From Bdellovibrionota bacterium (GTDB lineage Bacteria > Bdellovibrionota_C > UBA2361 > JBIKWN01), in contig JBIKWN010000048.1 of the NCBI GenBank assembly GCA_044356295.1, forward strand, positions 1-19,719: a stretch of DNA of 19,719 nt, read 5' to 3'. Every line of letters begins with the position of its first letter. The stretch's first letter is position 1. Under the pieces are notes generated by a model. The model was not told where the DNA came from. It ran no database searches and was given only the letters and a program-made list of their open reading frames with translations. Positions 75-11,908 of the stretch are shown piece after piece. Made by a program: the position numbers and the translations under genes.

Positions 75-1607
75 CTATCGGACAATAGTGCCCAACACCT
101 GCTCGGAAATAACTATACTCTGGGCAGCAGTACCATTAGCAGAGGGCTCAGGGGATTGTCTGGTGAGTCGTAAGAGCTTGAATTCAGCCATCAGGGGATA
201 TGTTTTTTTTAGATATGAAAAAGTATGGTCGATAAAATCCCCCGGTGCATAACCAGGAAAGCGAGAGTTCCATTCAGACCTAAGATATGAGTAATCTGAA
301 GGCATGGCAAAGTAACTTTCAAGTTTATCTGAATTGAATTCACTTCCTTTATCAAGGTCTATCCATATTGATGAATTTTTAGCTCTTCCTAATCGCACAT
401 ACATGTAAACTGTAGTCGGTGCATCAAATGAGAACATCCTCCAATGTTGTGGGATTCTTAAATACTGTATTAAAAATTGATTATATTGAGGAAGTGACCA
501 TGACGGCTCCCTGCCACCACTCATCCAAGATTTATAAGAATACAAAGAATGGATGAAGACATGCGAAATAATCATCACTGATAGAATACCAGTTACAATA
601 TGAGCAATTTTTGAAGAATTATTTTTTTCTACTCGGTTAATATCTGATGATTGGATCTTTTTATCATTAAAAATGAGTGCCCAAAAATAATTTGGTACTA
701 CAAGTATCGATAACGACATCATCACAGGGCTAAAAGGACCAAGTATCAGACAGAGTCCAATACCAAAATGTAAAAATAAAATTACACATGCTCCTATAAG
801 TCGAAATATAAAGGAATAAAACGGAAATAAAATAAGGATTGGCAATGCCCCTTCTAATATCAATACAGTTCGACTTAAAATCTGTAATAGCGAGAAAGAT
901 ACATAGTCACGAATGAGCACACCTATAAAAGTCACACGATCTGGAATCCATAAACTATAATATAGTGCGGTTCCTGTTTGCCATGTTACGCCAGTTTTTG
1001 TTAGGAAATTAAAAGTGTAAATGACTGCTATTGATACAAGACATCCTGCAAAAGCAATTGATGAGCCCAGTGAGTCAGAAAGATCCTCTTTACGCTTTAC
1101 CAAGGGTTTATTCAGAAACATTGGCAGCGAAAATGTGAATCTTTTATCGGTTGGAAGAAGAATAGTCCAAAGTAAAATGAGGTGCAGGACAATTGTTCCC
1201 CCGTTTTCTAATAAAAGGTTTCTGTTATTGATTGAAACCGAACAGAGCAAGGTAAGCACTTTAATCCACACACCTCCGATCCCACAGGTAAATAAAGCGA
1301 ATAAAATTGTAGAAAACAGAAAAAAGAGAATCACTTCATTTGGGGAACTGAATGCATCTAGAAACGAGAAAGCATAATCAACACTTGAAAATAACTTATA
1401 ATGATTAGGGAAAACCCCATTATTAGTATAAAATTCTTTGTAGTGAAAAAATCGAGTCAATACATCAGTCAGCAGAATACAACCGATACTGATTCTAAAT
1501 AGTGCTAATGCCCGCAGATCAAAAAAACAGTATCGATGATACAGAAAAGACAGTATCTTTCTTAAAAAGTGAATACTATTTTGGCTAAAACTACTCATAC
1601 ACTTCAT
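75..1607 (-). CDS. HTTM-domain polytopic membrane protein (SdpB / vitamin K-dependent carboxylase-related), with a C-terminal QxWxMF segment
   Basis: 510-aa ORF with many hydrophobic helices. Motifs DLRALALFRISIG, FYTNNGVFP, NRNLLLENGG, WQTGTALYY, LFLHFGIG and PQHWRMFS are typical of bacterial HTTM proteins. Confidence 0.8.
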   Translation of the reverse strand: MKCMSSFSQNSIHFLRKILSFLYHRYCFFDLRALALFRISIGCILLTDVLTRFFHYKEFYTNNGVFPNHYKLFSSVDYAFSFLDAFSSPNEVILFFLFSTILFALFTCGIGGVWIKVLTLLCSVSINNRNLLLENGGTIVLHLILLWTILLPTDKRFTFSLPMFLNKPLVKRKEDLSDSLGSSIAFAGCLVSIAVIYTFNFLTKTGVTWQTGTALYYSLWIPDRVTFIGVLIRDYVSFSLLQILSRTVLILEGALPILILFPFYSFIFRLIGACVILFLHFGIGLCLILGPFSPVMMSLSILVVPNYFWALIFNDKKIQSSDINRVEKNNSSKIAHIVTGILSVMIISHVFIHSLYSYKSWMSGGREPSWSLPQYNQFLIQYLRIPQHWRMFSFDAPTTVYMYVRLGRAKNSSIWIDLDKGSEFNSDKLESYFAMPSDYSYLRSEWNSRFPGYAPGDFIDHTFSYLKKTYPLMAEFKLLRLTRQSPEPSANGTAAQSIVISEQVLGTIVR

Positions 1608-1663: not shown

Positions 1664-3070
1664 ATGGGGCTAAAAATCACGAAACGTCAAAAGAGTATAC
1701 TGATAAGTATCTTCTTGATTACCAGTATCTGGTTACTAGCGGTTACCCCTATATTTAGAATTCCGGTTGTAGGAATTGCGGATAATGGGGATTTTTATAG
1801 GGTTATAAACCCAATAGGATTAGAAAAAATAGGTGGTCGCGAAAGTGGCGACCCAGTACTGCTTACAGAGTACTCAAAACAGAGGCCTATTTTTCGTCGA
1901 CTTTCATCTACGGCAAGTATAGTACCCTTTTTTATAAAGGAATTTCATACATTTCTGTTTGGCATAAGTAAGAACTTAGATATCCAGATTCTTGGAATAA
2001 CACTTTCGATTCTATTCCTGTTCTGTATGCTATTTGCTCACTTTTATCTGCTTATTCCAATTTCGACAATTGGTGTGATCTGTTTTATCTTCTCGGATCC
2101 AAGTTACCTACTCTATCTAAATAGTTTCCTTTCAGAAGGAACTGTTTTTATCAGTTTATTTTTATTAATCTGCTTTTTGATTTCCCACCGTCAAAAAAAA
2201 TCTAAACTGCTTCTCTATTTTATTTTCTTTATTTTTCTTTTTACGAAACATCACTTTGCAATTCTTGGATTACCTTTCTTTGTTTTTTATAGCTTACTAC
2301 ACCGCAGAACAGATTATGGGTTGCTGGTTATTGCTCTCGTAGCTCTTTATTTTTCATTCATTTCGCTCAATCAATTTAGAAAGATCAATATTTTTCTGCC
2401 TAATGCGTTCAATCGATTCGCATCCGGTCCTGCAGCCCTCAGTGACAATCCCACAAAGATACTTATAAACCTTAATCTAAAACCAGAATATCAAAAATAT
2501 GTAAATGCTAATTTCTGGTCACTCAATCTTGCAGATAATAATACGAGTGTTGAATTAAAAGAGATTATTAAAGTACCAATACACGCAATTGCTTTTGAAT
2601 ACTTCAAAGACTCTTCGGTTTTATCAAAGATTTCAGTCAAAGCTCTGGATGCAGTCGCTTTCAGTAAAATTTACACCGCTGCGCACTACTCTGATGTAAG
2701 TCACCCCCTGGAAAGATTTAGACGAGCCATTAGTTTTCGAGACTTTCTAGAAGAATGTTTCTCGAAGTATAAAATAACAACTTGGCTGATACTGATGTTC
2801 TTTGTTTTTTCTGCATTCTGTATCTCAAAAAGACGCATTCGTTATAGTATGGTCTTTCTTTCCTTATCAACGTTACTGATTGTTTCATCAAGTATTCTTG
2901 GTGATGGGCTTTGGGATTTTGAACGACATACTCTGTTGGCAAGGTTTTGTTTTGATATCCTGATAGGCTTATCAATCTATAGTATAATGCAGCACTGTTA
3001 TTATTATTTTTCCTCTACAAGATTCATTCACCAAAGAAAGTTTCTAAGAATTACGGAAGAAAAAGGCTAA
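1664..3070 (+). CDS. WsfD-like polytopic membrane protein, putative GT-C fold (lipid-linked sugar) glycosyltransferase
   Basis: 468 aa with many TM segments. GIADNGDFYRV in the first external loop and YLLYLNSFLSE resemble the WsfD-like family as I recall it. Confidence 0.6.
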   Translation: MGLKITKRQKSILISIFLITSIWLLAVTPIFRIPVVGIADNGDFYRVINPIGLEKIGGRESGDPVLLTEYSKQRPIFRRLSSTASIVPFFIKEFHTFLFGISKNLDIQILGITLSILFLFCMLFAHFYLLIPISTIGVICFIFSDPSYLLYLNSFLSEGTVFISLFLLICFLISHRQKKSKLLLYFIFFIFLFTKHHFAILGLPFFVFYSLLHRRTDYGLLVIALVALYFSFISLNQFRKINIFLPNAFNRFASGPAALSDNPTKILINLNLKPEYQKYVNANFWSLNLADNNTSVELKEIIKVPIHAIAFEYFKDSSVLSKISVKALDAVAFSKIYTAAHYSDVSHPLERFRRAISFRDFLEECFSKYKITTWLILMFFVFSAFCISKRRIRYSMVFLSLSTLLIVSSSILGDGLWDFERHTLLARFCFDILIGLSIYSIMQHCYYYFSSTRFIHQRKFLRITEEKG

Positions 3071-6000
3071 GCTTCCAAGCTAATGTTTCAAAACTTTTTA
3101 AATCCTCGATATCATGACCACCTTGATAGAGATAACTTACCGTGTGTGGTTTTGTATATGCTGGATCGTATTGCCCTCTGACGGTAAGAATCGGAATTTT
3201 CTTTGATTCTGCTAAAGCCTGCAAAGCGCCTTTATCATTACCAACTTGGTCGATGATTGCATCAACAGCGATTCCTTCTTCTAATAGAATTTTTTGTATT
3301 TTATTGCCATAAGAAACTGAATAGCTGACAATTTTTTGATAGTTGTTATGAGTTGCATATTTTTTGACGGCTTTAATAGTAGAAGCTAAAGCTTCTCGAT
3401 TAATACTTTTCTCGAACTTTTTTCCGTAGCCAATCGATCCTGGGTAATTTACCGCCAATACACGGTATCCTAAATTATTAAGCAGATGAAAATATGGGTT
3501 ATATCTTGGCGAAACATTTTCGTTTGGTCCTCCATGCCACCAAACAATTAATTTTTTTAGTGATGGATCGCCAAAAAGCCATGCTGGAATTGTTTCACTC
3601 TTGGAATCAGTTGGAATTTCAACAGCATTGATAGCGATTTGTTGATGAACCGGCCGATCAACAAGGAACTCCCATGTAGAGTCATTACCTAAACGACCGA
3701 GAGTTCGTGGATGGGTACTGTCTGAAATAATTCCGTAAATATCTTGATCAACTTTTACTGCACTATAAACAATAATATTTTTATCAGATTTATATTTAGA
3801 AGTTTCAATCCAATAGAAAGAACGATCTGCAAAACGCTTAAAATCTTGATTGGTATCAAGAAGGTCGAAATCTTCTTGTTCTCGAGCTGTGGCAGTAAGT
3901 TCAATAACCCCAGTTTCTTGCAAATTAATTGAGAAGGATCCCACTCGATCATCTGTTATACCTCTGCCTGTCAAACCGAAAGTGCCATCGGGAAGTGTAA
4001 AGATTTCACGCGCATCTGTTAAATTTTTTAGATTGTTTTCAGTGCAATCATTTTTATGATCATTGCCATTACAAATTATTACAATTGGATTCGTTCGAGC
4101 ACTCTTAATCCCTGCAAATACACCTTGATTGTTGATTGCGCAAAGATCAAAACTCTCAATGGCAACAGTCGAGTCAAGTTGTCGATCCATTGAACTACCA
4201 AGATAGGTGATAACTCTTGAACCATTTTCCTCAAAAGAAATTTTTCTTGAATGTGAATTAAGGCAAATCTTTCCAGTATCAGAATTGCCCTTGTTAATTT
4301 TTGTTAATTCAGTTGTGGCTTTATTATAAACATATAAATTATTTGATTGAGCTTGTGTTGAGACTGATAGGAGCAATACGTGTTGTTCACTCAAAGCATC
4401 AATGACCATCAAATGAGAATTACTGAAATCCAAAGAGGCAGGGATTTGCAATGGAAAAATTTCATTTTTATAATAAACCTTAGGGCGCATGAGCCCATTT
4501 TGATCTGTTTGTGCAAAAAGAACTTTGCCATACCAGTTGATTACTTTACTCTGGGATTTTTTCCATTCTATTGGAATAACGGCATCATCAAAAAAAAGAT
4601 GAGGACATTGTACGAGATAATTTTTAAGTGAATTCTTGGTTTCGTATGAAAGTGCATAAAAAGAAGCAAAAATTTCTATCTGCCTTATCAATTGCTGCGA
4701 GCATTCTTTTGACGAATTAAGTAGAGTTGTAAATTGCTGATTTGCTTCTGCACTATCCCCTGTACGGCTCGCATGAACTGCAGAAATTTCATACGTCGAA
4801 TATTGCTTGGGAAAATAACGCTTCTGTTGTTCAACTAGGGATTGGGCTTCGCTTGTCTTGTTCAGGTTAAGAAACTGATGAAGCTGTTCAGTAACTTTTA
4901 CATTGGTCCAATCCCAATATGTTTTGACTTCGTAAGTTTCATACGGATTTTTATCTAGTTTCGAAATTTGGTTTAATGCAAGAATCCGCAAAGGCATCTG
5001 ATAAAAACACAGACAGATAAATACGACTCCGGTTGCTTTTGCTACATACCATCTTGCTTGGCTCGCAATATTGAATTTTTTTTCAACAAGAAACGTAAAG
5101 ATTAAACAATAAATAATTAAACTTATTAATCTACTTGAAATAGGCTCTGAAAATGCCTGTATACTGACAGCAAATAAACTCAACAATAGTAATGCTTTTT
5201 TTGTTGTAAGCTTCTTCCATCGTAGCAGAATTGCAACTGGCGTAATCAAAAAGAACGTCAAATAAGCCAATCCTCCAATGATTCCTAATTCAACAAAATA
5301 CCTCAGGTATTCATTCATCACGACATTAAAAGACCCCTTGAGTATTCCAAATGAAGAATCAAGAGATAAATCAGAAAGCCTAATTACCAATTGTTTAGCG
5401 CCTATTCCAGTCAAAGGGGATTCATAAAAAAACTGTAATGTTTTCTGCCAAATTAATAGTCGCCCACTCCATGCTGATGGATTAAATATTGAAGTTAGAC
5501 TATTGGTATAGGGACTTGCTGAATTCCAATGTAAGAAATCTTTTAAAGAAAACGCCAAAAGAACAGTACTGATTCCAATGAAACAGATCCCTCTCCTGTG
5601 TTTTTGGCGATAAAAGAGTTTACGAAGTGACGGAATAAGAACAAACATTGCAAAATAAAATGCAAGAATTACCCACCCAGATCTGCATCGAAAAAGTACA
5701 ATACAAACAAGAGACAAAATAATATTTAAACTTGTCCAGAGTCGAATAAAAAAACTTCGTGATAGCAGAAGGAGATAGACACCCAGTGGCAATGCTTGAA
5801 GTAGGAATAAAACAAGTTGATTTCTAAATCCAAACGCTGAACCAAGCCAATCACCACTCACTATTGAGATTGGCATATAAAACCTATTAATAAACATCAA
5901 CAGCAACAAAAGCGTTACAGTAAAATTTATTGAGTAGATGACACCAAGTAAGGTGAATTTTTTCTGTTCAATAAGAATAATAATAGAAAGCAACAGTAAC

Positions 6001-6260
6001 CAGATTCCAATTTCATCAAGTACTAATCCAGGATTTGGAATATTGAACAATTGAAGAAATAATTCACCAACTATGAAATATAAAGGAAAAAGAAGGATCC
6101 ATGGCACATATTTATACCTTGGTCTTATTTCAAAAAAACTTACTATGACAAAGGCAGAGGTTAAGAGGCTCAGTGCGATGAAACGGTTGCTAGCTAAAGC
6201 TTGAAATCCTTGGAGATTAAGTAAACTACCAAATAAAATAAGGATTAGACTGTAAAACAA
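3051..6260 (-). CDS. Fusion of an O-antigen ligase (Wzy_C)-like membrane domain, a helical TPR-like region, a beta-rich (propeller-like) region and an S9-type alpha/beta hydrolase
   Basis: 1069 aa, TTG start. The first ~420 aa are polytopic, with FGFRNQL, RCRSGW, SGRLLIWQKTLQFFYESPLTGIG and MNEYLRYFVELGIIG. The C-terminus has LIVWWHGGP (H909), GYRVLAVNYPGSIGYG, SVSYG (S983), GQYD (D1032) and GGH (H1049). Confidence 0.8.
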   Translation of the reverse strand: MFYSLILILFGSLLNLQGFQALASNRFIALSLLTSAFVIVSFFEIRPRYKYVPWILLFPLYFIVGELFLQLFNIPNPGLVLDEIGIWLLLLSIIILIEQKKFTLLGVIYSINFTVTLLLLLMFINRFYMPISIVSGDWLGSAFGFRNQLVLFLLQALPLGVYLLLLSRSFFIRLWTSLNIILSLVCIVLFRCRSGWVILAFYFAMFVLIPSLRKLFYRQKHRRGICFIGISTVLLAFSLKDFLHWNSASPYTNSLTSIFNPSAWSGRLLIWQKTLQFFYESPLTGIGAKQLVIRLSDLSLDSSFGILKGSFNVVMNEYLRYFVELGIIGGLAYLTFFLITPVAILLRWKKLTTKKALLLLSLFAVSIQAFSEPISSRLISLIIYCLIFTFLVEKKFNIASQARWYVAKATGVVFICLCFYQMPLRILALNQISKLDKNPYETYEVKTYWDWTNVKVTEQLHQFLNLNKTSEAQSLVEQQKRYFPKQYSTYEISAVHASRTGDSAEANQQFTTLLNSSKECSQQLIRQIEIFASFYALSYETKNSLKNYLVQCPHLFFDDAVIPIEWKKSQSKVINWYGKVLFAQTDQNGLMRPKVYYKNEIFPLQIPASLDFSNSHLMVIDALSEQHVLLLSVSTQAQSNNLYVYNKATTELTKINKGNSDTGKICLNSHSRKISFEENGSRVITYLGSSMDRQLDSTVAIESFDLCAINNQGVFAGIKSARTNPIVIICNGNDHKNDCTENNLKNLTDAREIFTLPDGTFGLTGRGITDDRVGSFSINLQETGVIELTATAREQEDFDLLDTNQDFKRFADRSFYWIETSKYKSDKNIIVYSAVKVDQDIYGIISDSTHPRTLGRLGNDSTWEFLVDRPVHQQIAINAVEIPTDSKSETIPAWLFGDPSLKKLIVWWHGGPNENVSPRYNPYFHLLNNLGYRVLAVNYPGSIGYGKKFEKSINREALASTIKAVKKYATHNNYQKIVSYSVSYGNKIQKILLEEGIAVDAIIDQVGNDKGALQALAESKKIPILTVRGQYDPAYTKPHTVSYLYQGGHDIEDLKSFETLAWKLSLFLP

Positions 6261-6273
6261 TCAACTGTGACAA

Positions 6274-6447
6274 TTATGGAGTTATTACTATCCGTTCATC
6301 CACAGATAAGGTCACAGCAAAACCACCAAATGTGGCAAGTAAAACTTGAGGAGCTTCGTAAGCAAGGACTGGAGATGATTGTGTCTCAAGTGAAGAAGTA
6401 TCTTTCAGTTCTTCTTGTACGAATTTTGATTTATCTGAATCTGCCAT
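6274..6447 (-). CDS. Putative RiPP-type precursor peptide, 57 aa: MADSDKSKFVQEELKDTSSLETQSSPVLAYEAPQVLLATFGGFAVTLSVDERIVITP
   Basis: Small ORF on the same strand as, and between, the modification genes. It contains YEAPQV (6343-6360), matching the YxxPxL RRE-recognition motif. I prefer ATG 6447 to GTG 6477 because a -35/-10 pair overlaps the upstream extension. Confidence 0.7.
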   Translation of the reverse strand: MADSDKSKFVQEELKDTSSLETQSSPVLAYEAPQVLLATFGGFAVTLSVDERIVITP

Positions 6448-6455
6448 TACCTTGA

Positions 6456-6485
6456 ATAGTACACCCAAGATATCCACGGTATCAA
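6456..6485 (-). promoter_or_regulatory. Putative sigma70 promoter for the precursor peptide gene (probably leaderless)
   Basis: Minus strand reads TTGATA (6485-6480), 18 nt, TACTAT (6461-6456), 8 nt, ATG (6447). There is no properly spaced Shine-Dalgarno. Confidence 0.55.
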
Positions 6486-6531
6486 GAGAAAAAATGTAAG
6501 GTTTCCGCCTATAAACATCTAGAAAAACAAC

Positions 6532-7785
6532 CTATGTCCTAAGAAACTGACTAATGTGTAAGGTTACCGGTCTATTGAATTCATCGAAAGCATTGTAACA
6601 CTCTAATATTTTAAGCTCTAAATCCTCAATGTTTTGGATCTGGTTATCTCTCAAACAATTGAAATTTGGCAGTTCTAAAATACGACAACTGACCTCAAAA
6701 AGCTTCTCTTCAAATTTGTAACTTTGAGAACAGGTGGTTTCCTTCAATAAATCTTTGCGACTCAAAACTTCTACCATTGTTTGCTGTCCAACAGTTGCCT
6801 CATAGGCAAGAGATAACAAGCTCAGATCTGCAATTAACTTTTCAAGTTCGGAATAATATTTCTCCCTCTTAAGAAAGAAAAATGGGTATTTACTCGTCGT
6901 TAATTTCTTGTAGCGCCTTACTATCGAAAATAGCTCATCAAGCAAACCAAAGCATTGATCGTGTACCGATTGATTTATAACTATTGAATTAATTAACGAC
7001 TGCAGTCGAGTATTTTGAATATCACGTTCAAAAGATTTCCTCATGAATATTGACGTTGCAAGAATATCTTCGAGAGCATTTTCGAAAAAAATGTAAGGCG
7101 GATCAAATAACGGGATTTTTTTAGCAGCAGAAGAAGCCCAGTGGGAAACTTCTTGATACAATCTATTGGCTTCGTTTAGATCAATTGTTGAAGGCAGAAT
7201 AATTGTCAAATCAACATCAGATGAACCTGGAATAATTTCCTTATTCGCATATCGAGAATGAAAATGAAAAATTCCAATATTTTTCTTTTTACACAAAGAT
7301 TCTACATTAAACTTAACAACATCAAGCAAACAGCTCCAAAAAAAGCGAGCAAAACTATAATACTTGAACAAAGAAAAAAACTTTATTAAAAGAGCTTTAA
7401 TTAGTTCTTTAACAGGTTTTAGAATTTTATAACAAAATTCAATGCAGCTCTTGTATGTTTGATCTCTATTGGTTGCCTTCGCTGGAAAAACTCTGCCGAT
7501 ATACATCGATGCCATCACTGGCGGATCTTCATGATGTGATTTTAATGAGCTTGTAATAATTTTTTGGTCTTCAATTCTAACAAACTGATGCCAAATCATT
7601 ATTTGATCACGAATGATAGCAATTATCATTCCTGGACTGAGCTCACTCAGAGGGAATTTTTCAATAAAACATATCTCTGACCGTATGAGTGATGGTTCCA
7701 TACTATCACTCATGACTGGTGCATAAATCCGCTCACCAGAGAAAACTCTTCTTTGGACCTCAAGTAAGATCTGAATCTTTGTCAC
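6532..7785 (-). CDS. S24/S26 (signal-peptidase-like, Ser/His) peptidase domain fused to a Pol-beta-type nucleotidyltransferase domain
   Basis: aa 1-100 contain VMSDSMEPSL (S28), LSPGMIIAI, WHQFV (H66) and EDPPV...YIGRV. aa ~170-200 contain FHSRYANKEIIPGSSDVDLTII (D190, D192). The GTG start overlaps the upstream TAG (TAGTG). Confidence 0.7.
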   Translation of the reverse strand: MTKIQILLEVQRRVFSGERIYAPVMSDSMEPSLIRSEICFIEKFPLSELSPGMIIAIIRDQIMIWHQFVRIEDQKIITSSLKSHHEDPPVMASMYIGRVFPAKATNRDQTYKSCIEFCYKILKPVKELIKALLIKFFSLFKYYSFARFFWSCLLDVVKFNVESLCKKKNIGIFHFHSRYANKEIIPGSSDVDLTIILPSTIDLNEANRLYQEVSHWASSAAKKIPLFDPPYIFFENALEDILATSIFMRKSFERDIQNTRLQSLINSIVINQSVHDQCFGLLDELFSIVRRYKKLTTSKYPFFFLKREKYYSELEKLIADLSLLSLAYEATVGQQTMVEVLSRKDLLKETTCSQSYKFEEKLFEVSCRILELPNFNCLRDNQIQNIEDLELKILECYNAFDEFNRPVTLHISQFLRT

Positions 7786-9230
7786 TACACCAATACCCCA
7801 ATGTTACGAAGATTTTCAGTAAGCAAAGAAAAATCGTTAGCGATGACTCCTTTATCAATATTATACTTTTCACTCGTGGTATTAATCGTAGTTTCTGCAT
7901 CTTTGGTTGAAAGATAGGTCAGAAGCATGAATCGCGCAGTGTGATTAAGTGTAAATCCAGTATTTCCTAGAAGATCTTTTTCATTCCACGCCACGATTCG
8001 AACAATTTCTGGAGTAATGGCAATTCGAAACGCAGCTTGTAAGAGAGTTGGCGTTTGAGATGGAATGCTACTTAGCAAACAATCTTTTTTGATACGTTTC
8101 TCAAAAATAGATGAAATCCACCACCCAATCCAACGCGTTATATGGGCAACAAATGAAAAAAGATAATCTTTGTTCAAAGCTTTTGGTAACGAAGGAAAAG
8201 AGAACCCCCAATAGGTAGGCGCTACGATACCAAGTGAAGGGAGCCACTTTTTAATCATACGTCTATCCCAATACGCTTGTCTAAAAAGTGATCCAAAATA
8301 TCGATATAGGGAACTATGTCCAAGATCTTTGGTAATGACCTCAGCGATGAATGCAATGCATCCACCGAAGTTCAAACATTGAAAACTAAGATCAACATCC
8401 TCCGACCTGCCTAAGGTGGTATCAAAAAATATGTTATTATCAATTAAAAAATCTTTCCGAATCATGACAGCAGCTGTATCGAAAAATGGGATCGGCAATC
8501 TCTTTGCATTTGCAAATCCTTTTATAGACCAATGATTCATCTGATCATGATGTGTTTTTAAGATTCCTCGACTCAAAATTGCTGAGTACTGAATGGCTGA
8601 CTGAACAGCTACAATTTCATCAAGTTCAAACCCAGATAAAGTTTTCTCTATCCATTGTCTTCCAAGTTGAACATCACTATCTATAAAAGCAATAAATTTT
8701 CCCCTTGCAGCTCGAAGTCCCCTATTTCGTGCATATGAACGTGATTTTCTTTTTTCATCTAATATAATCACAGGATATTTAGAAGCCAGAAAAGATGTCC
8801 TATCAGTTGAATTATTATTTACAACAATGACTTCAAAGTGATGTTTTGTTTCTTGATTAAAAATGGATTCAAGGAGTGCTTCTATACTAGCTTCAGCATT
8901 AAAAGCTGGAATGACGAATGAAATAAATGGGTTTATAGGTGATCTAGCTAACATGTTAGCTTTATAGAGTTGAAATAAAACATCAATTAAATCATTTTGA
9001 ATTGATTCTTTATCAACAGTCGGAAATTGAGTAATTAAGAACTCAAGAATTTTATCTTGAGTTCCATATGTTTGAATTAAGGTTGGAAGGTGTGACCAGA
9101 TCCCTGTTAGCGTAATTGTTTTTCCGCCCTGGAAATGAATAATTTCAACAGTAGTATCATCTTTGCTGAAATAGACATCCGGATGAAGAATAAAGCCATG
9201 CTTGATAAAATCGAACAGACTTTTCTTCAT
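7785..9230 (-). CDS. GT2 glycosyltransferase flanked by N- and C-terminal PqqD/RRE-like domains
   Basis: GT2 core: ISFVIPAFNAEASI, EVIVVNNNSTDRT, ARNRG, FIAFIDSD, RSEDVDL. aa ~12-95 (LHPDVYFSK..TLTGIWS..ESIQNDLIDVLFQLYKANML) and aa ~405-481 (FTLNHTARFML..EKYNIDKGVIANDFSLLTENLRNIGVL) follow the three-strand/three-helix PqqD pattern. Confidence 0.8.
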   Translation of the reverse strand: MKKSLFDFIKHGFILHPDVYFSKDDTTVEIIHFQGGKTITLTGIWSHLPTLIQTYGTQDKILEFLITQFPTVDKESIQNDLIDVLFQLYKANMLARSPINPFISFVIPAFNAEASIEALLESIFNQETKHHFEVIVVNNNSTDRTSFLASKYPVIILDEKRKSRSYARNRGLRAARGKFIAFIDSDVQLGRQWIEKTLSGFELDEIVAVQSAIQYSAILSRGILKTHHDQMNHWSIKGFANAKRLPIPFFDTAAVMIRKDFLIDNNIFFDTTLGRSEDVDLSFQCLNFGGCIAFIAEVITKDLGHSSLYRYFGSLFRQAYWDRRMIKKWLPSLGIVAPTYWGFSFPSLPKALNKDYLFSFVAHITRWIGWWISSIFEKRIKKDCLLSSIPSQTPTLLQAAFRIAITPEIVRIVAWNEKDLLGNTGFTLNHTARFMLLTYLSTKDAETTINTTSEKYNIDKGVIANDFSLLTENLRNIGVLV

Positions 9231-9242
9231 GCAAATTAGAGA

Positions 9243-9716
9243 TTAATCGACTATCAATCCTTTGACGACATTCTTGAGTTCTTGAGCCTGTTCAATCGTT
9301 GAAGAATCTGTGCGCTTTATTAATTTTTCATAAATCGTAGCGACCTTTTTATAGGGCTCAGGGCGATCACCGAGGGTTTTGATCTGTTCAGAAATCTTAA
9401 CTTCAATATCTTTTAGAGCTTTCTGATTTTTTTCTTTCTCTTCAGGTTTTGATTTTTCAAGTGCTGCTGTTGCAACTTCAAACTCATCAAATGTTGCTTG
9501 TACGATAGCTAATTGTTCTGCGCCGGATTTCTGTTTGGTAATCTGCGCGTCATTATAAAAACGAAATCCAAAAAATCCAATCGCTGCAATAAGGGCGATA
9601 TAAAATACAGGTTTTGAAATTACGTTAACAATGTCACTTAATTTCTGAATCTCATCTTCTGCAAATTCAGTTTGACCATCAAGTACACGGAGTGAAATTT
9701 TTTTCTGTTCTGCCAT
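9243..9716 (-). CDS. Hypothetical single-pass membrane protein with a helical C-terminal region
   Basis: One TM segment (VFYIALIAAIGFFGF) followed by a charged helical region. ATG 9716 is preferred to TTG 9722. Confidence 0.6.
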   Translation of the reverse strand: MAEQKKISLRVLDGQTEFAEDEIQKLSDIVNVISKPVFYIALIAAIGFFGFRFYNDAQITKQKSGAEQLAIVQATFDEFEVATAALEKSKPEEKEKNQKALKDIEVKISEQIKTLGDRPEPYKKVATIYEKLIKRTDSSTIEQAQELKNVVKGLIVD

Positions 9717-9734
9717 ATTCAAATAAAGTTTAGA

Positions 9735-10385
9735 TTACATTTTATGTTTAAAGTCATCTGGATCAAGTTTCTCTAAAAGATCCTCCCACTGACTCTTATC
9801 GATATTTTTAAAATCGGATTGATCTGCTGTTGGTATTTCTTCAGATTCAGAAGCATCTGCACTATCTGTAGATTGAGAATCTGATTGAGCCGATGAAGCC
9901 TCATCTTTTTCATCAATCACCGATTCTGGTGGTCGTGCCATCGGCTCAGCTTGTTCAATTTGCAACGTATTTTTTGATTGCTCAAGAACTGATTTCGTAA
10001 CAAATATTGGCGCTGATTCACGGAGCGCAATTGCTATTGCATCACTTGGACGTGCATCAATTAACATTACTCGATCACCACGACTAATTGTTAGCTCTGC
10101 AAAATAGGTCGATTCTTTTAATTCGGTAATAAAGACTCTTTGTACTTTTACATCAGTTTGTAAAAATATCTCATGCATTAAATCATGAGTCAGGGGGCGC
10201 GCCATTGCCACTTGCTTAATTGCGCTGGCAATTGATGTGGCCTCGGCAATACCGATCCAAATTGGGAGGATATATTTCCCATCTTCATCTTTTAGAATTA
10301 CTACAGGGGCTTGAGTATTTGGGTCTAGGACGAGTCCGCCTACATACATCTCAATTGCGGAATCTTCAGGGGCTTTCGAAGTCAT
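9735..10385 (-). CDS. Bifunctional nuclease family protein (DUF151)
   Basis: PVVILKD, ILPIWIGIAEA, RPLTHDL, IDARPSDAIAIALR and an acidic linker before WEDLLEKLDPDDF. Confidence 0.92.
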   Translation of the reverse strand: MTSKAPEDSAIEMYVGGLVLDPNTQAPVVILKDEDGKYILPIWIGIAEATSIASAIKQVAMARPLTHDLMHEIFLQTDVKVQRVFITELKESTYFAELTISRGDRVMLIDARPSDAIAIALRESAPIFVTKSVLEQSKNTLQIEQAEPMARPPESVIDEKDEASSAQSDSQSTDSADASESEEIPTADQSDFKNIDKSQWEDLLEKLDPDDFKHKM

Positions 10386-10510: not shown

Positions 10511-11908
10511 CTACCCCAAATACTCACCAGTCAAAGTAAACCGATGAGCCTTCAAAAGCCTAACAGGAACAATCATTCCAGGCTTCAACCCAGAATAAGG
10601 CTTATCAAAATGAACAATAGTATTTTGCGACAACCTGCCCTGCAAACGTGACTCATCATGGCTAGAAACCCGATCAATCAATACTTCACCAGTTTGACCA
10701 ATCCACTTCTGTAACCGAACCGCTGCCAATTCTTCCTGAGTTTTTTGCAAAAACTGTAACCAACGAAGTTTTTCTTCATACGGCACTGGATCTTCCATCT
10801 CGGCAGCTTTTGTTCCAGGACGTGGAGAAAAAATATAAGAATACGAATGATCAAACTCAAGATGCTTCATCAGATCAATTGTTTCTAGAAAATCACTTTC
10901 AGTTTCACCAGGAAACCCAACAATTACATCCGTTGTAACAGCCATTTCAGGTACACGTGCTTTAATTGATTCAATTATCGAAATATATTTATCGCGACGA
11001 TAATTTCGATTCATCAATTTTAAAATTTTATCTGACCCAGCTTGGAGCGGCATATGAATATGGCGACAAACCTTTGGATTTTCACAAACTAAATCAATAA
11101 AATCTTGGCGAATTTCTTGGGGATGTGGGCTTGTAAAACGAATTCGTTTTATATGATCGATCTCTGCAATTTTACTAATCAATTCGGTAAATTTAAGTCT
11201 TGGTTTTAAATCCAATCCATATGAATTTACAGTTTGCCCAAGCAACGTTAACTCTTTGACACCACGGTGAGCTGCGATTCGAGCCTCACGCATAATTTCA
11301 TTTGGATGACGAGATACTTCAACACCCCGAGTCGTTGGAACAATGCAGTACGTGCAATTTTTATTACATCCTCGACTAATTGAAATAAATGCAGAAATTT
11401 TTTCAGTTTCATAAAATCCTGCAGGCAACTCTTCCCATTCATCACGGTAATCGACAGCTACTTGCGGGGCACTCCCCGATTTTCGAAGTGCAACCATTGA
11501 AGGAACAAGCGACAAATTATGAGTACCAAAAACAAGATCAACTGTTTTACTTCTTTTTACAATTGCTTCGCCCTCTTGTTGTGCAACACATCCACCAACA
11601 CCGATCATGAGCTTTGGATTTTTCTTTTTAAGATCCTGAAGTTGTCCAAGCATCGAATACAACTTCTGTTCAGGTTTATCACGAACGCTACAAGTGTTAA
11701 TTAAAATAAGATCTGCAGTTTCAGGGCCATCAACTGGTTGATAATCATTCTCAAGAATTTTTTTCAGCTTCTCGGTATCGTACTCATTCATAGCACAGCC
11801 AAAAGTCTTGATGTAAAGACCAGGTTTTTCAGACTGAGACTTCAAAAGTCCAGATTTATCTGAATGATTACGGGCACTTATTTGATAAAGCGTCTCTTCG
11901 GGCTGCAT
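10511..11908 (-). CDS. miaB: tRNA-2-methylthio-N6-dimethylallyladenosine synthase MiaB
   Basis: UPF0004 motifs TFGCAMNEYD, NTCSVR and GGCVAQQEG; radical SAM motif CNKNCTYCIVP; RIRFTSPHP, TDVIVGFPGET, SPRPGTKAA; C-terminal TRAM domain. Confidence 0.95.
   Translation of the reverse strand: MQPEETLYQISARNHSDKSGLLKSQSEKPGLYIKTFGCAMNEYDTEKLKKILENDYQPVDGPETADLILINTCSVRDKPEQKLYSMLGQLQDLKKKNPKLMIGVGGCVAQQEGEAIVKRSKTVDLVFGTHNLSLVPSMVALRKSGSAPQVAVDYRDEWEELPAGFYETEKISAFISISRGCNKNCTYCIVPTTRGVEVSRHPNEIMREARIAAHRGVKELTLLGQTVNSYGLDLKPRLKFTELISKIAEIDHIKRIRFTSPHPQEIRQDFIDLVCENPKVCRHIHMPLQAGSDKILKLMNRNYRRDKYISIIESIKARVPEMAVTTDVIVGFPGETESDFLETIDLMKHLEFDHSYSYIFSPRPGTKAAEMEDPVPYEEKLRWLQFLQKTQEELAAVRLQKWIGQTGEVLIDRVSSHDESRLQGRLSQNTIVHFDKPYSGLKPGMIVPVRLLKAHRFTLTGEYLG

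Follow-up and report, generated by a model that had tools for sequence, protein, structure and literature searches.

A recurrent fusion of a WaaL-fold membrane domain and an acylaminoacyl-peptidase-type hydrolase in a Bdellovibrionota genome: a candidate bifunctional envelope enzyme

What might a bacterium do with a single protein that joins an O-antigen-ligase-like membrane domain to a serine hydrolase? This question is raised by the open reading frame (ORF) P0001 in a 19,719-base stretch of DNA from a Bdellovibrionota bacterium. The stretch, hereafter the window, is a complete contig (C42) of a 2.96-Mb metagenome-assembled genome (MAG) that comprises 128 contigs and is 93.6% complete. An earlier, sequence-only reading of the window had described one open frame of 1069 codons linking a Wzy_C-like part, a beta-rich part and an S9 part, and had named R267, M315-N316, S983, D1032 and H1049 as its telling residues. 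The frame was confirmed, all these residues are in place, and the beta-rich middle is a propeller in our model. We propose, at about an even chance of being right, that P0001 is a periplasm-facing, bifunctional enzyme of the inner membrane that would couple the transfer of glycans linked to undecaprenyl diphosphate (Und-PP) to the hydrolytic cleavage of a peptide or ester linkage in a substrate associated with the cell wall. The folds, conserved residues, model topology, recurrence of the fusion and gene company presented below were computed, and from them we infer the two activities, their coupling and the substrate.

The C-terminal half of P0001 is a hydrolase of the S9C (acylaminoacyl peptidase) type. 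In Pfam, Peptidase_S9 matches residues 923-969 only (profile positions 6-52), with E 0.002 and 18.1-20.1 bits, below the cut-off of 22.6 bits, yet the assignment is strong by profile and by fold. A profile of 62 relatives matched the solved acylaminoacyl peptidases 5l8s (E 5.2e-21), 1ve6 and 2qzp (E 4e-17), and in its alignment to 5l8s the HGGP motif, the NY(P/R)GSTGxG motif, the S-Y-G core and the catalytic Asp and His are matched residue for residue. The top Foldseek matches were likewise acylaminoacyl peptidases (E 2.8e-22, TM 0.76-0.79). VIA-align superposed the module on 2hu8/1ve6 with Z 28.5 and a root-mean-square deviation (rmsd) of 3.0 Å over 481 of 509 residues; across the S9C enzymes, 481-488 residues aligned at Z 28.1-28.5 with an identity of only 12-16%. 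Macrocyclases of ribosomally synthesised, post-translationally modified peptides (RiPPs) lie further off by fold (PCY1, 5uzw, Z 19.8; OphP, 7zaz, 19.5; GmPOPB, 5n4e, 18.8; against 28.1 for acylaminoacyl peptidase), and no lasso isopeptidase is among the fold matches listed. The hydrolase domain on its own matches feruloyl esterases and thioesterases at Z 17-18.7.

Is this hydrolase still an enzyme? S983, D1032 and H1049, together with the HGGP motif, are invariant in all ten members of the fusion alignment (A1), and P0001 retains all 33 columns that are invariant in 18 hydrolase relatives. Because the triad and HGGP are kept throughout the fusions, the hydrolase looks active, with an apparently complete Ser983-Asp1032-His1049 triad. 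The geometry of the triad had been left to structure prediction, and in the model the three residues follow in the canonical order at the canonical loops. The nucleophile elbow (S979-YSVSYG-N986) reads S-V-S-Y-G-N against the G-x-S-x-G-G pattern of S9C; its S-Y-G core is kept, and relatives show G, S, A or E at the first position. The triad is closely spaced, with 49 residues from Ser to Asp and 17 from Asp to His, against 82 and 32 in 5l8s when counted on the alignment, which reflects shortened loops rather than a lost element. The sequence-only reading was thus right about the SVSYGN elbow and about a spacing shorter than is typical, but in calling the active site altered it overstated the case, as the triad and HGGP are invariant and the S-Y-G core is that of S9C enzymes.

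At the other end of the protein, the membrane part adopts the fold of the ligase WaaL (GT-C_B). Pfam assigns Wzy_C (PF04932) to residues 179-334 with E 3.9e-12 and 46.6 bits, against a gathering score of 31.7. VIA-align matched model residues 28-393 to WaaL 7tpj_B with Z 19.7 and an rmsd of 5.1 Å over 330 of 403 residues, and a profile of relatives that lack TPRs matched 7tpg_B with E 1.6e-22. Two arginines of WaaL, R191 and R265, are present as R193 and R267; the latter shows no variation in the TPR-less set (A7) and hardly any in the fusion and Wzy_C-TPR alignments. Such arginines of WaaL/PglS-type enzymes have been proposed to coordinate the pyrophosphate of Und-PP, with a histidine as the catalytic base, and the H324A variant of PglS is inactive (PMC12800693). 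At the position of this histidine, P0001 has M315 and its relatives have Y, M, F, N or L, the subfamily consensus being F-N-D-Y-L-Q. Because P0001 retains all seven columns that are invariant among 34 Wzy_C-TPR relatives, the missing His is, judged by these alignments, a conserved trait of a Wzy_C subfamily and not the mark of a broken copy. The earlier observation that HN has become MN while R267 is kept therefore stands; its interpretation as a local alteration does not, since the His is replaced throughout the subfamily. For the same reason we refrain from classing the domain as a WaaL- or PglL-type ligase; it would be either a WaaL scaffold with a different catalytic arrangement or a polymerase-like enzyme. 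Two relatives of the same His-less Wzy_C-TPR subfamily, P0049 and P0052, carry an N-terminal OpgC-type (acyltransferase-like) membrane domain.

The arrangement of the two halves relative to the membrane was taken from structure models. A full-length AlphaFold (AF2) model based on a 76-row alignment had a predicted local distance difference test score (pLDDT) of 86 and a predicted template modelling score (pTM) of 0.65. In this model, membrane helices extend as far as residue 434 and a loop at 243-316 bears R267; TPR-like helices, the propeller and an eight-stranded alpha/beta-hydrolase are also seen. A separate model of residues 561-1069 reached pLDDT 92.9 and pTM 0.93, and the family profile (A6) matches TPR proteins across the stalk region. 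By hydropathy and in the model, four hydrophobic helices follow the catalytic loop, and an extra transmembrane (TM) helix is predicted to carry the chain to the periplasm. This would place the C-terminal modules, including the S9 domain, whose topology the sequence-only reading had left to be predicted, on the same side as the Wzy_C catalytic loop. Cysteines C666, C707, C730 and C739 are invariant in 18 of 18 hydrolase relatives, and free-standing relatives begin with a hydrophobic stretch that we read by eye as a signal peptide or membrane anchor; both agree with a periplasmic placement.

The fusion design is not peculiar to this genome. An exhaustive phmmer (HMMER) search of 1.84 billion representatives returned 474 relatives at E ≤ 1e-3. 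Three of them are collinear with P0001 over both halves in one stretch, with E 2.8e-80 to 2.1e-69: P0007 (976 aa, query 122-1069, E 2.8e-80), P0008 (1291 aa, query 41-1065) and P0009 (1282 aa, query 88-1052). When 35 relatives were scanned with Pfam, Wzy_C was found in nine (P0007, P0008, P0009, P0020, P0080, P0084, P0086, P0125 and P0130). All nine align across the hydrolase part with an invariant triad, and five have alpha/beta-hydrolase or S9 matches in Pfam. Altogether, collinear fusions at 24-27% identity were seen in no fewer than nine other protein clusters. Fused ORFs were also read directly in three loci: L011 (Competibacteraceae MAG, 1086 aa), L012 (Myxococcales MAG, 1339 aa) and L035 (metagenome contig, 1092 aa). 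The Wzy_C-S9C design thus recurs in several bacterial phyla. On two Gemmatimonadales contigs the halves are separate genes, adjoining in L021 and with a short ORF between them in L019, while about 40 free-standing proteins of 520-700 aa match P0001 residues ~560-1068. At least 44 propeller-hydrolase clusters lack any Pfam assignment that exceeds the threshold.

Close to home the family is sparse. A word-indexed search for full-length homologues found P0001 itself only. The query gave two weak partial matches and no strong one in 40 genomes of the same order or closer, of which two, 62% and 86% complete, belong to the same genus. At E ≤ 1e-10, five of 124 genomes sampled from the phylum have a member of the hydrolase family; in the phylum of genome G124 it was found in one of 401 genomes, the seed itself, at E ≤ 1e-30 with two candidates scored per genome. 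Regions in G117 and G044 proved to be loci already in the set, and wider sampling gave no further contexts.

A fusion in a fragmented MAG of 128 contigs, with an uncertain start codon and a poorly modelled N-terminus, might be an artefact: a chimera created by the assembly, two genes read through as one, or a gene in decay. We regard this as very improbable. Public contigs from four runs were compared with window positions 2600-6700, a range that includes 4400-5000, across which the sequence-only reading had called for read mapping, and no joints or loose ends were seen over this range in any of the four. A single contig of run X1, which may be the source sample, covers 2600-4966, comprising the hydrolase, the propeller, the TPR stalk and the last helix, and so crosses the TPR-propeller junction. 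Run X2, from a separate study, covers 30 of 30 bins, with 14 of 15 pieces at 99% identity or higher. Because these contigs cover the gene without joints, and because the search for full-length homologues turned up collinear fusions in independent assemblies of other phyla, a chimera or single-strain read-through is rejected. The family-invariant residues of both halves are all retained, which argues against decay. Among the differences listed, at least eight codons are changed in run X2 (at least five synonymously) and at least 11 in X3 (at least six synonymously), too few for inference. At position 4947 the window has A where contigs of X1, X2 and X3 have T, a change of Asn438 to Lys within the linker that follows the last membrane helix; the A of the window could represent a minority variant or stem from an error in assembly. 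No run with RNA data for P0001 was listed.

The N-terminus is less certain than the rest. The stop-free frame runs from 6260 to 3054 on the minus strand, in DNA of ~35% GC, with its stop at 3051-3053. Its first codon is a TTG immediately behind an in-frame TGA, while the recorded gene call begins at V52 (GTG, 1018 aa). Residues 1-23 are poorly modelled, yet the relatives P0008 and P0009 align from near residue 1. The true start lies somewhere in residues 1-52, so that the N-terminus is uncertain by at most 51 residues; the other conclusions are unaffected.

What the protein acts on is suggested by the genes that accompany its relatives. Gene context was assessed by tblastn of the window's neighbours against 33 homologous loci and by a Pfam scan of 15 loci. 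Amidase_3 domains are fused to the hydrolase module in P0010, P0030 and P0041, an Amidase_2 domain in P0033, and an amidase also in L017 and L018. The P0008 and L012 fusions align end to end with P0041 and P0030, amidase parts included (40% identity over 736 aa, 33% over 750 aa). Separate Amidase_3 genes adjoin the hydrolase gene in L010, L019 and L020. A glycosyltransferase family 51 (GT51) gene lies directly downstream in L007 and nearby in L010 and L022; in L035, GT51 overlaps the stop of the fusion by 4 bases and a second copy lies upstream. L007 also holds a gene for an SLT lytic transglycosylase. Another recurrent neighbour, in five loci of different lineages (L007, L012, L013, L015, L018), is an amidohydrolase-like protein of ~480 aa that is 40-60% identical between loci. 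Upstream of the L011 fusion alone lies a gene for the chain-length protein Wzz. As a separate observation, L021 has an Amidohydro_3 domain fused to a PD40/hydrolase-like protein, adjoining its Wzy_C gene.

The commonest neighbour of the free-standing hydrolase is a membrane protein of ~490 aa with C-terminal TPRs and a weak likeness to PMT_2, here called A8-type. It adjoins the hydrolase in eight loci (L004, L007, at 8410-9891, L008, L009, L013, L016, L017 and L025) and is fused N-terminally to it in L018 (847-3447). The L018 chain runs membrane protein, propeller, hydrolase, Amidase_3, and an apparent frameshift near 3380-3450 interrupts its ORF. We did not adopt a reading of the A8-type protein as Wzy_C, because most of its likeness to the Wzy_C-TPR family (hhalign, 92.8%) falls within the TPRs and last helices. 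A phmmer search of the PDB with one A8-type member returned nothing, its Atlas look-alikes are named mannosyltransferase/TPR (a lead only), and no relationship to the WsfD-like and 510-aa proteins of the window was found. So the hydrolase module is a mobile periplasmic unit carried by two kinds of TPR-bearing membrane protein, one of WaaL/Wzy_C fold and one weakly PMT_2-like. About 3 kb downstream of the L018 hydrolase-amidase, in a Bacteriovoracaceae MAG, there is a Transglut_core3 gene (6805-7209; lasso-peptide leader peptidase family) followed by a 91-codon ORF, which may be a coincidence.

Because the hydrolase module is repeatedly fused or adjacent to MurNAc-L-Ala amidases, GT51 enzymes, amidohydrolase-like proteins and TPR membrane proteins, its substrate is most likely associated with the cell wall. 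In the coupled mechanism that we favour, the WaaL-fold domain would bind an Und-PP-linked glycan through its two arginines and transfer or polymerise it as a His-independent variant of WaaL/Wzy enzymes. The tethered S9C hydrolase would act on the acceptor or product of that same reaction, cutting or transferring a peptide or ester bond. Candidate substrates are the stem peptide of peptidoglycan, a lipid-linked unit bearing a MurNAc-peptide, or a glycoconjugate bound to the wall, and the local genes for GT2-PqqD (a family 2 glycosyltransferase with a PqqD domain), an S24/nucleotidyltransferase (NTase)-like protein and a WsfD-like protein may supply or decorate the glycan.

A precedent for such a donor exists. 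The E. coli WaaL variant F332S (WaaL15) uses lipid II, as does overproduced PglL, and attaches lipid II-derived peptidoglycan units to lipopolysaccharide (LPS; PMC4296511). As this single change suffices for E. coli WaaL to take lipid II, a MurNAc-peptide donor is chemically reasonable, and it fits the company of peptidoglycan enzymes in which the P0001 family is found. WaaL15 differs in being a laboratory mutant without an attached hydrolase, and lipid II use by the P0001 family is our hypothesis. More speculatively, and with rather low confidence, the family could be a natural counterpart of WaaL15: a His-less WaaL-type enzyme would work on lipid II or another MurNAc-peptide Und-PP unit, beside a dedicated GT51 and an S9C peptidase (in relatives also Amidase_3 and the amidohydrolase-like partner) that edits, removes or transfers the stem peptide, yielding a new peptidoglycan-derived or peptidoglycan-anchored glycoconjugate. 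The S9 acyl-enzyme may also be resolved by an amine, so that the peptide is joined to the glycan in a sortase-like manner.

Several points weigh against a coupled cell-wall enzyme. For no member of the family is an activity, a substrate or a phenotype known. P0001 lacks the histidine that is proposed to be catalytic in WaaL, PglL and PglS, so its membrane domain might have no transferase function. With a pTM of only 0.65, the full-length model does not fix the relative position of the two active sites. The link to the cell wall is one of guilt by association in ~15 loci, several of them from related MAGs, and L004, L005 and L006 have no peptidoglycan gene within 4.5 kb. The window itself lacks an amidase, GT51, amidohydrolase-like or A8-type gene; by tblastn, four GT51 loci and an Amidase_3 match lie on other contigs of the genome, which has no amidohydrolase-like or A8-type relative. 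Finally, the local operon encodes a PqqD domain, a peptide-binding unit found typically in RiPP pathways.

This last point bears on the role that the sequence-only reading had proposed, namely a membrane-bound machine that trims a peptide and transfers a glycan to it, or that binds or translocates it, in a RiPP setting. In such a pathway the GT2-PqqD protein would bind and glycosylate a small precursor, perhaps the product of the 57-codon ORF, and the fusion would trim it with its S9 part and transfer the glycan at the membrane. The PqqD domain scores above its Pfam cut-off (31.3 against 23.4 bits), the best named relative of the GT2 is the mycofactocin glycosyltransferase MftF, though far below cut-off, and S9 enzymes that act on RiPPs are among the fold matches. 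GT2-PqqD, the S24/NTase-like gene, the 57-codon ORF and the fusion also follow each other on one strand with short gaps, or with a shared base in the case of the first two. Yet among the loci compared, only this window pairs the fusion gene with a PqqD gene: neither the GT2-PqqD nor the S24/NTase gene nor any PqqD domain was found in the 15 Pfam-scanned loci, and by tblastn a weak GT2 match in L011 is the sole recurrence of a window neighbour in the 33 homologous loci. Nor was a relative of the 57-codon ORF detected in those loci, and the window holds no cyclase, YcaO or radical SAM partner, its MiaB gene being a housekeeping one. PqqD-guided tailoring is cytoplasmic, whereas the hydrolase is predicted to be periplasmic and is far nearer to acylaminoacyl peptidases than to RiPP macrocyclases. 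We therefore consider a RiPP pathway improbable. The two-enzyme membrane fusion is real and its trimming-and-transfer logic plausible, but the RiPP setting derives from the neighbours in this one genome, the relatives stand beside peptidoglycan enzymes, and nothing in evidence points to translocation. A peptide-linked role in this particular genome is conceivable, given its GT2-PqqD gene, S24/NTase-like gene and 57-codon ORF.

The Wzy_C part can also be accommodated by better-known glycan pathways. P0001 could be a protein O-oligosaccharyltransferase, with a Wzy_C-TPR part resembling PglL or WsfB, TPR and S9C parts that recruit, process or themselves form the acceptor, and a GT2 and a WsfD-like protein that add a branching hexose via a lipid carrier. 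WsfB and PglL are Wzy_C enzymes with C-terminal TPRs, WsfH and WsfD add a branch sugar via a lipid carrier (PMC2943079), and the window has both a WsfD-family gene and a GT2. PglL-like genes often adjoin their targets (PMC3643930), and elsewhere the hydrolase module pairs with the TPR-bearing A8-type protein. We nevertheless judge this unlikely. The histidine that PglS needs is missing from P0001 and its whole subfamily, Pfam found no gene for an S-layer or pilin-like acceptor in the window, the GT2 is flanked by a PqqD domain, and the Amidase_3 fusions and GT51 neighbours would be left unexplained. Alternatively, the His-less Wzy_C domain could polymerise the repeat of an exopolysaccharide or O-antigen, with the tethered hydrolase acting as an esterase that removes or moves O-acyl groups. 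Wzy polymerases contain Wzy_C but no universal His, and no sequence motif is known to define polymerase activity. The Wzz gene of L011, the OpgC-type domains of P0049 and P0052, the title 'acylpeptide hydrolase/esterase' of the A. pernix enzyme in 1ve6, and the feruloyl esterase and thioesterase matches all fit this idea. Against it, neither Wzx nor Wzz was found among the 18 ORFs of the window, the full two-domain S9C architecture with its motifs is a better fit to peptide substrates, and the amidase and GT51 links point to peptidoglycan, so that we give a polymerase with esterase a low probability.

How far does the proposed cell-wall enzyme depart from systems already described? WaaL of Cupriavidus metallidurans (7tpg/7tpj; CAZy GT121) shares the fold and both arginines, but its proposed catalytic His (AHND; H313 by count on the alignment) is Met in P0001, which in addition has a 13th helix, a TPR stalk and a periplasmic hydrolase of 510 residues; no LPS core or O-antigen genes were found among the 18 window ORFs scanned. 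PglL, PglS and WsfB likewise combine a Wzy_C core with a periplasmic C-terminal domain or TPRs (PMC2943079, PMC12800693). P0001 differs from them in lacking the catalytic His, in an appendage that is by its fold a complete enzyme rather than a binding domain only, and in having no identified acceptor protein. Its WsfD-family neighbour and the GT2 gene complete a trio that recalls WsfB, WsfD and WsfH of Paenibacillus alvei S-layer glycosylation (PMC2943079). The S9C peptidases (MEROPS; A. pernix 1ve6/2hu8, S. psychrophila 5l8s) share propeller and hydrolase, HGGP, NYxGSTGxG, S-Y-G, Asp and His; the P0001 module is shortened, has the S-V-S-Y-G-N elbow and conserved cysteines, is membrane-tethered and predicted periplasmic, and scores below the Pfam S9 threshold. 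A WaaL-type domain fused to a second globular enzyme of the same pathway is known in WadA of Brucella/Mesorhizobium (GT121 + GT25; PMC10920833), a canonical ligase in which the appended domain is a glycosyltransferase, not a serine hydrolase. Bimodular WaaL-type enzymes and Wzy_C enzymes with periplasmic or TPR tails are therefore known already, while the Wzy_C-S9C design appears unstudied. A full-text literature search, mostly outside subscription journals, found no Wzy_C-S9 or Wzy_C-S9-amidase architecture.

WaaL, Wzy, PglL and the SEDS peptidoglycan polymerases form one structural class of enzymes that use lipid-diphosphate-linked sugars. The spread of this class beyond LPS and protein glycosylation is poorly mapped, and a recurrent, conserved design of a His-less WaaL-fold domain with an apparently active S9C hydrolase, to which close relatives add a MurNAc-L-Ala amidase domain and a GT51 gene in translational coupling, is a lead to an undescribed envelope pathway at the border of peptidoglycan and surface glycans. 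The analysis also puts a name to a substantial, unannotated propeller-hydrolase family and corrects a tempting RiPP annotation of the window.

Table 1. Coordinates of P0001, its parts and residues, and other features; positions refer to the window unless a locus is given
Feature	Position	Strand	Details
Fusion ORF P0001	3051..6260	-	1069 codons + stop; TTG start, alternative GTG start at V52
Membrane domain, residues 1-434	4959..6260	-	WaaL-fold core ~28-393, then extra TM helix 400-434
Pfam Wzy_C match, residues 179-334	5259..5726	-	includes periplasmic loop 243-316; Pfam and model
R193 (= WaaL R191)	5682..5684	-	invariant in 10/10 fusions and 34/34 Wzy_C-TPR relatives
R267 (= WaaL R265)	5460..5462	-	nearly invariant
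M315-N316	5313..5318	-	at WaaL His-Asn position (AHND in 7tpg); alignment
TPR-like helical stalk, residues 439-556	4593..4946	-	seven helices; model, family-profile matches to TPR proteins
Beta-propeller, residues 569-865	3666..4556	-	cysteines C666/C707/C730/C739; models, fold match
Compact alpha/beta-hydrolase domain, residues 877-1069	3054..3632	-	models, profile, fold match
HGGP 909-912, oxyanion-loop motif	3525..3536	-	aligned to acylaminoacyl peptidase HGGP (5l8s, 1ve6); invariant in 10/10 fusions
S983, putative nucleophile	3312..3314	-	turn between strand 976-982 and helix 985-994
D1032, putative triad acid	3165..3167	-	loop after strand 1024-1029 (seventh)
H1049, putative triad base	3114..3116	-	loop after strand 1043-1045 (eighth)
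WsfD-family membrane hexose transferase	1664..3070	+	convergent; NCBIfam NF051875, E 1.6e-35, 122.7 bits vs cut-off 80
57-codon ORF	6274-6446	-	ATG at 6446; between S24/NTase-like gene and fusion, ends 14 bases before TTG
417-aa protein, S24/S26-peptidase-like start, nucleotidyltransferase-like body	6532..7785	-	weak matches; Atlas lead score 0.81
GT2 glycosyltransferase with C-terminal PqqD (peptide-binding) domain	7785..9230	-	first gene of apparent operon
510-aa polytopic membrane protein	75-1607	-	no Pfam or NCBIfam match
MiaB gene	10511-11908		housekeeping; Pfam
Amidohydrolase-like protein	L007:5970-7409; L012:6834-8300; L018:4939-6369		weak Amidohydro_1/3; also in L013, L015

The neighbours of the fusion gene (Table 1) show some further features. 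The 3' ends of the WsfD-like gene and the fusion overlap by 20 bases (3051-3070), and no terminator-like site was found between them. The gene for the 417-aa protein begins on the last base (7785) of the GT2-PqqD frame. Close to the N-terminus of this protein is an S-M-E-P motif like that of serine peptidases (Pfam S24 at E 0.013 and TIGR02228 at E 4.4e-4, neither of which reaches its cut-off), and a second motif, G-S-x-D-x-D, is nucleotidyltransferase-like; among 124 genomes of the phylum the protein was found in this one (G000) only. Three full-length homologues of GT2-PqqD (P0156-P0158, 44-47% identity) repeat its architecture; a fourth, shorter one (P0159, 393 aa) is without PqqD. An identical copy of GT2-PqqD lies on a 38,196-base contig, and by eye the first ~100 residues of GT2-PqqD also appear PqqD-like. 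The product of the 57-codon ORF would be hydrophilic and acidic in its N-terminal half and hydrophobic towards the C-terminus, where it has a Gly-Gly; it could be a precursor peptide or a chance ORF.

The left 9.5 kb of the window is slightly lower in GC than the remainder (0.34-0.38 against 0.37-0.42), and the fusion gene would thus lie within a low-GC accessory stretch. In G002 the syntenic contig ends 242 bases past the orf159 homologue and G001 is rearranged, so an insertion of the left 9 kb is not established. The start of the 510-aa membrane protein may resemble HTTM-type domains, and a paralogue with 33% identity is encoded on contig C117 of the same genome.

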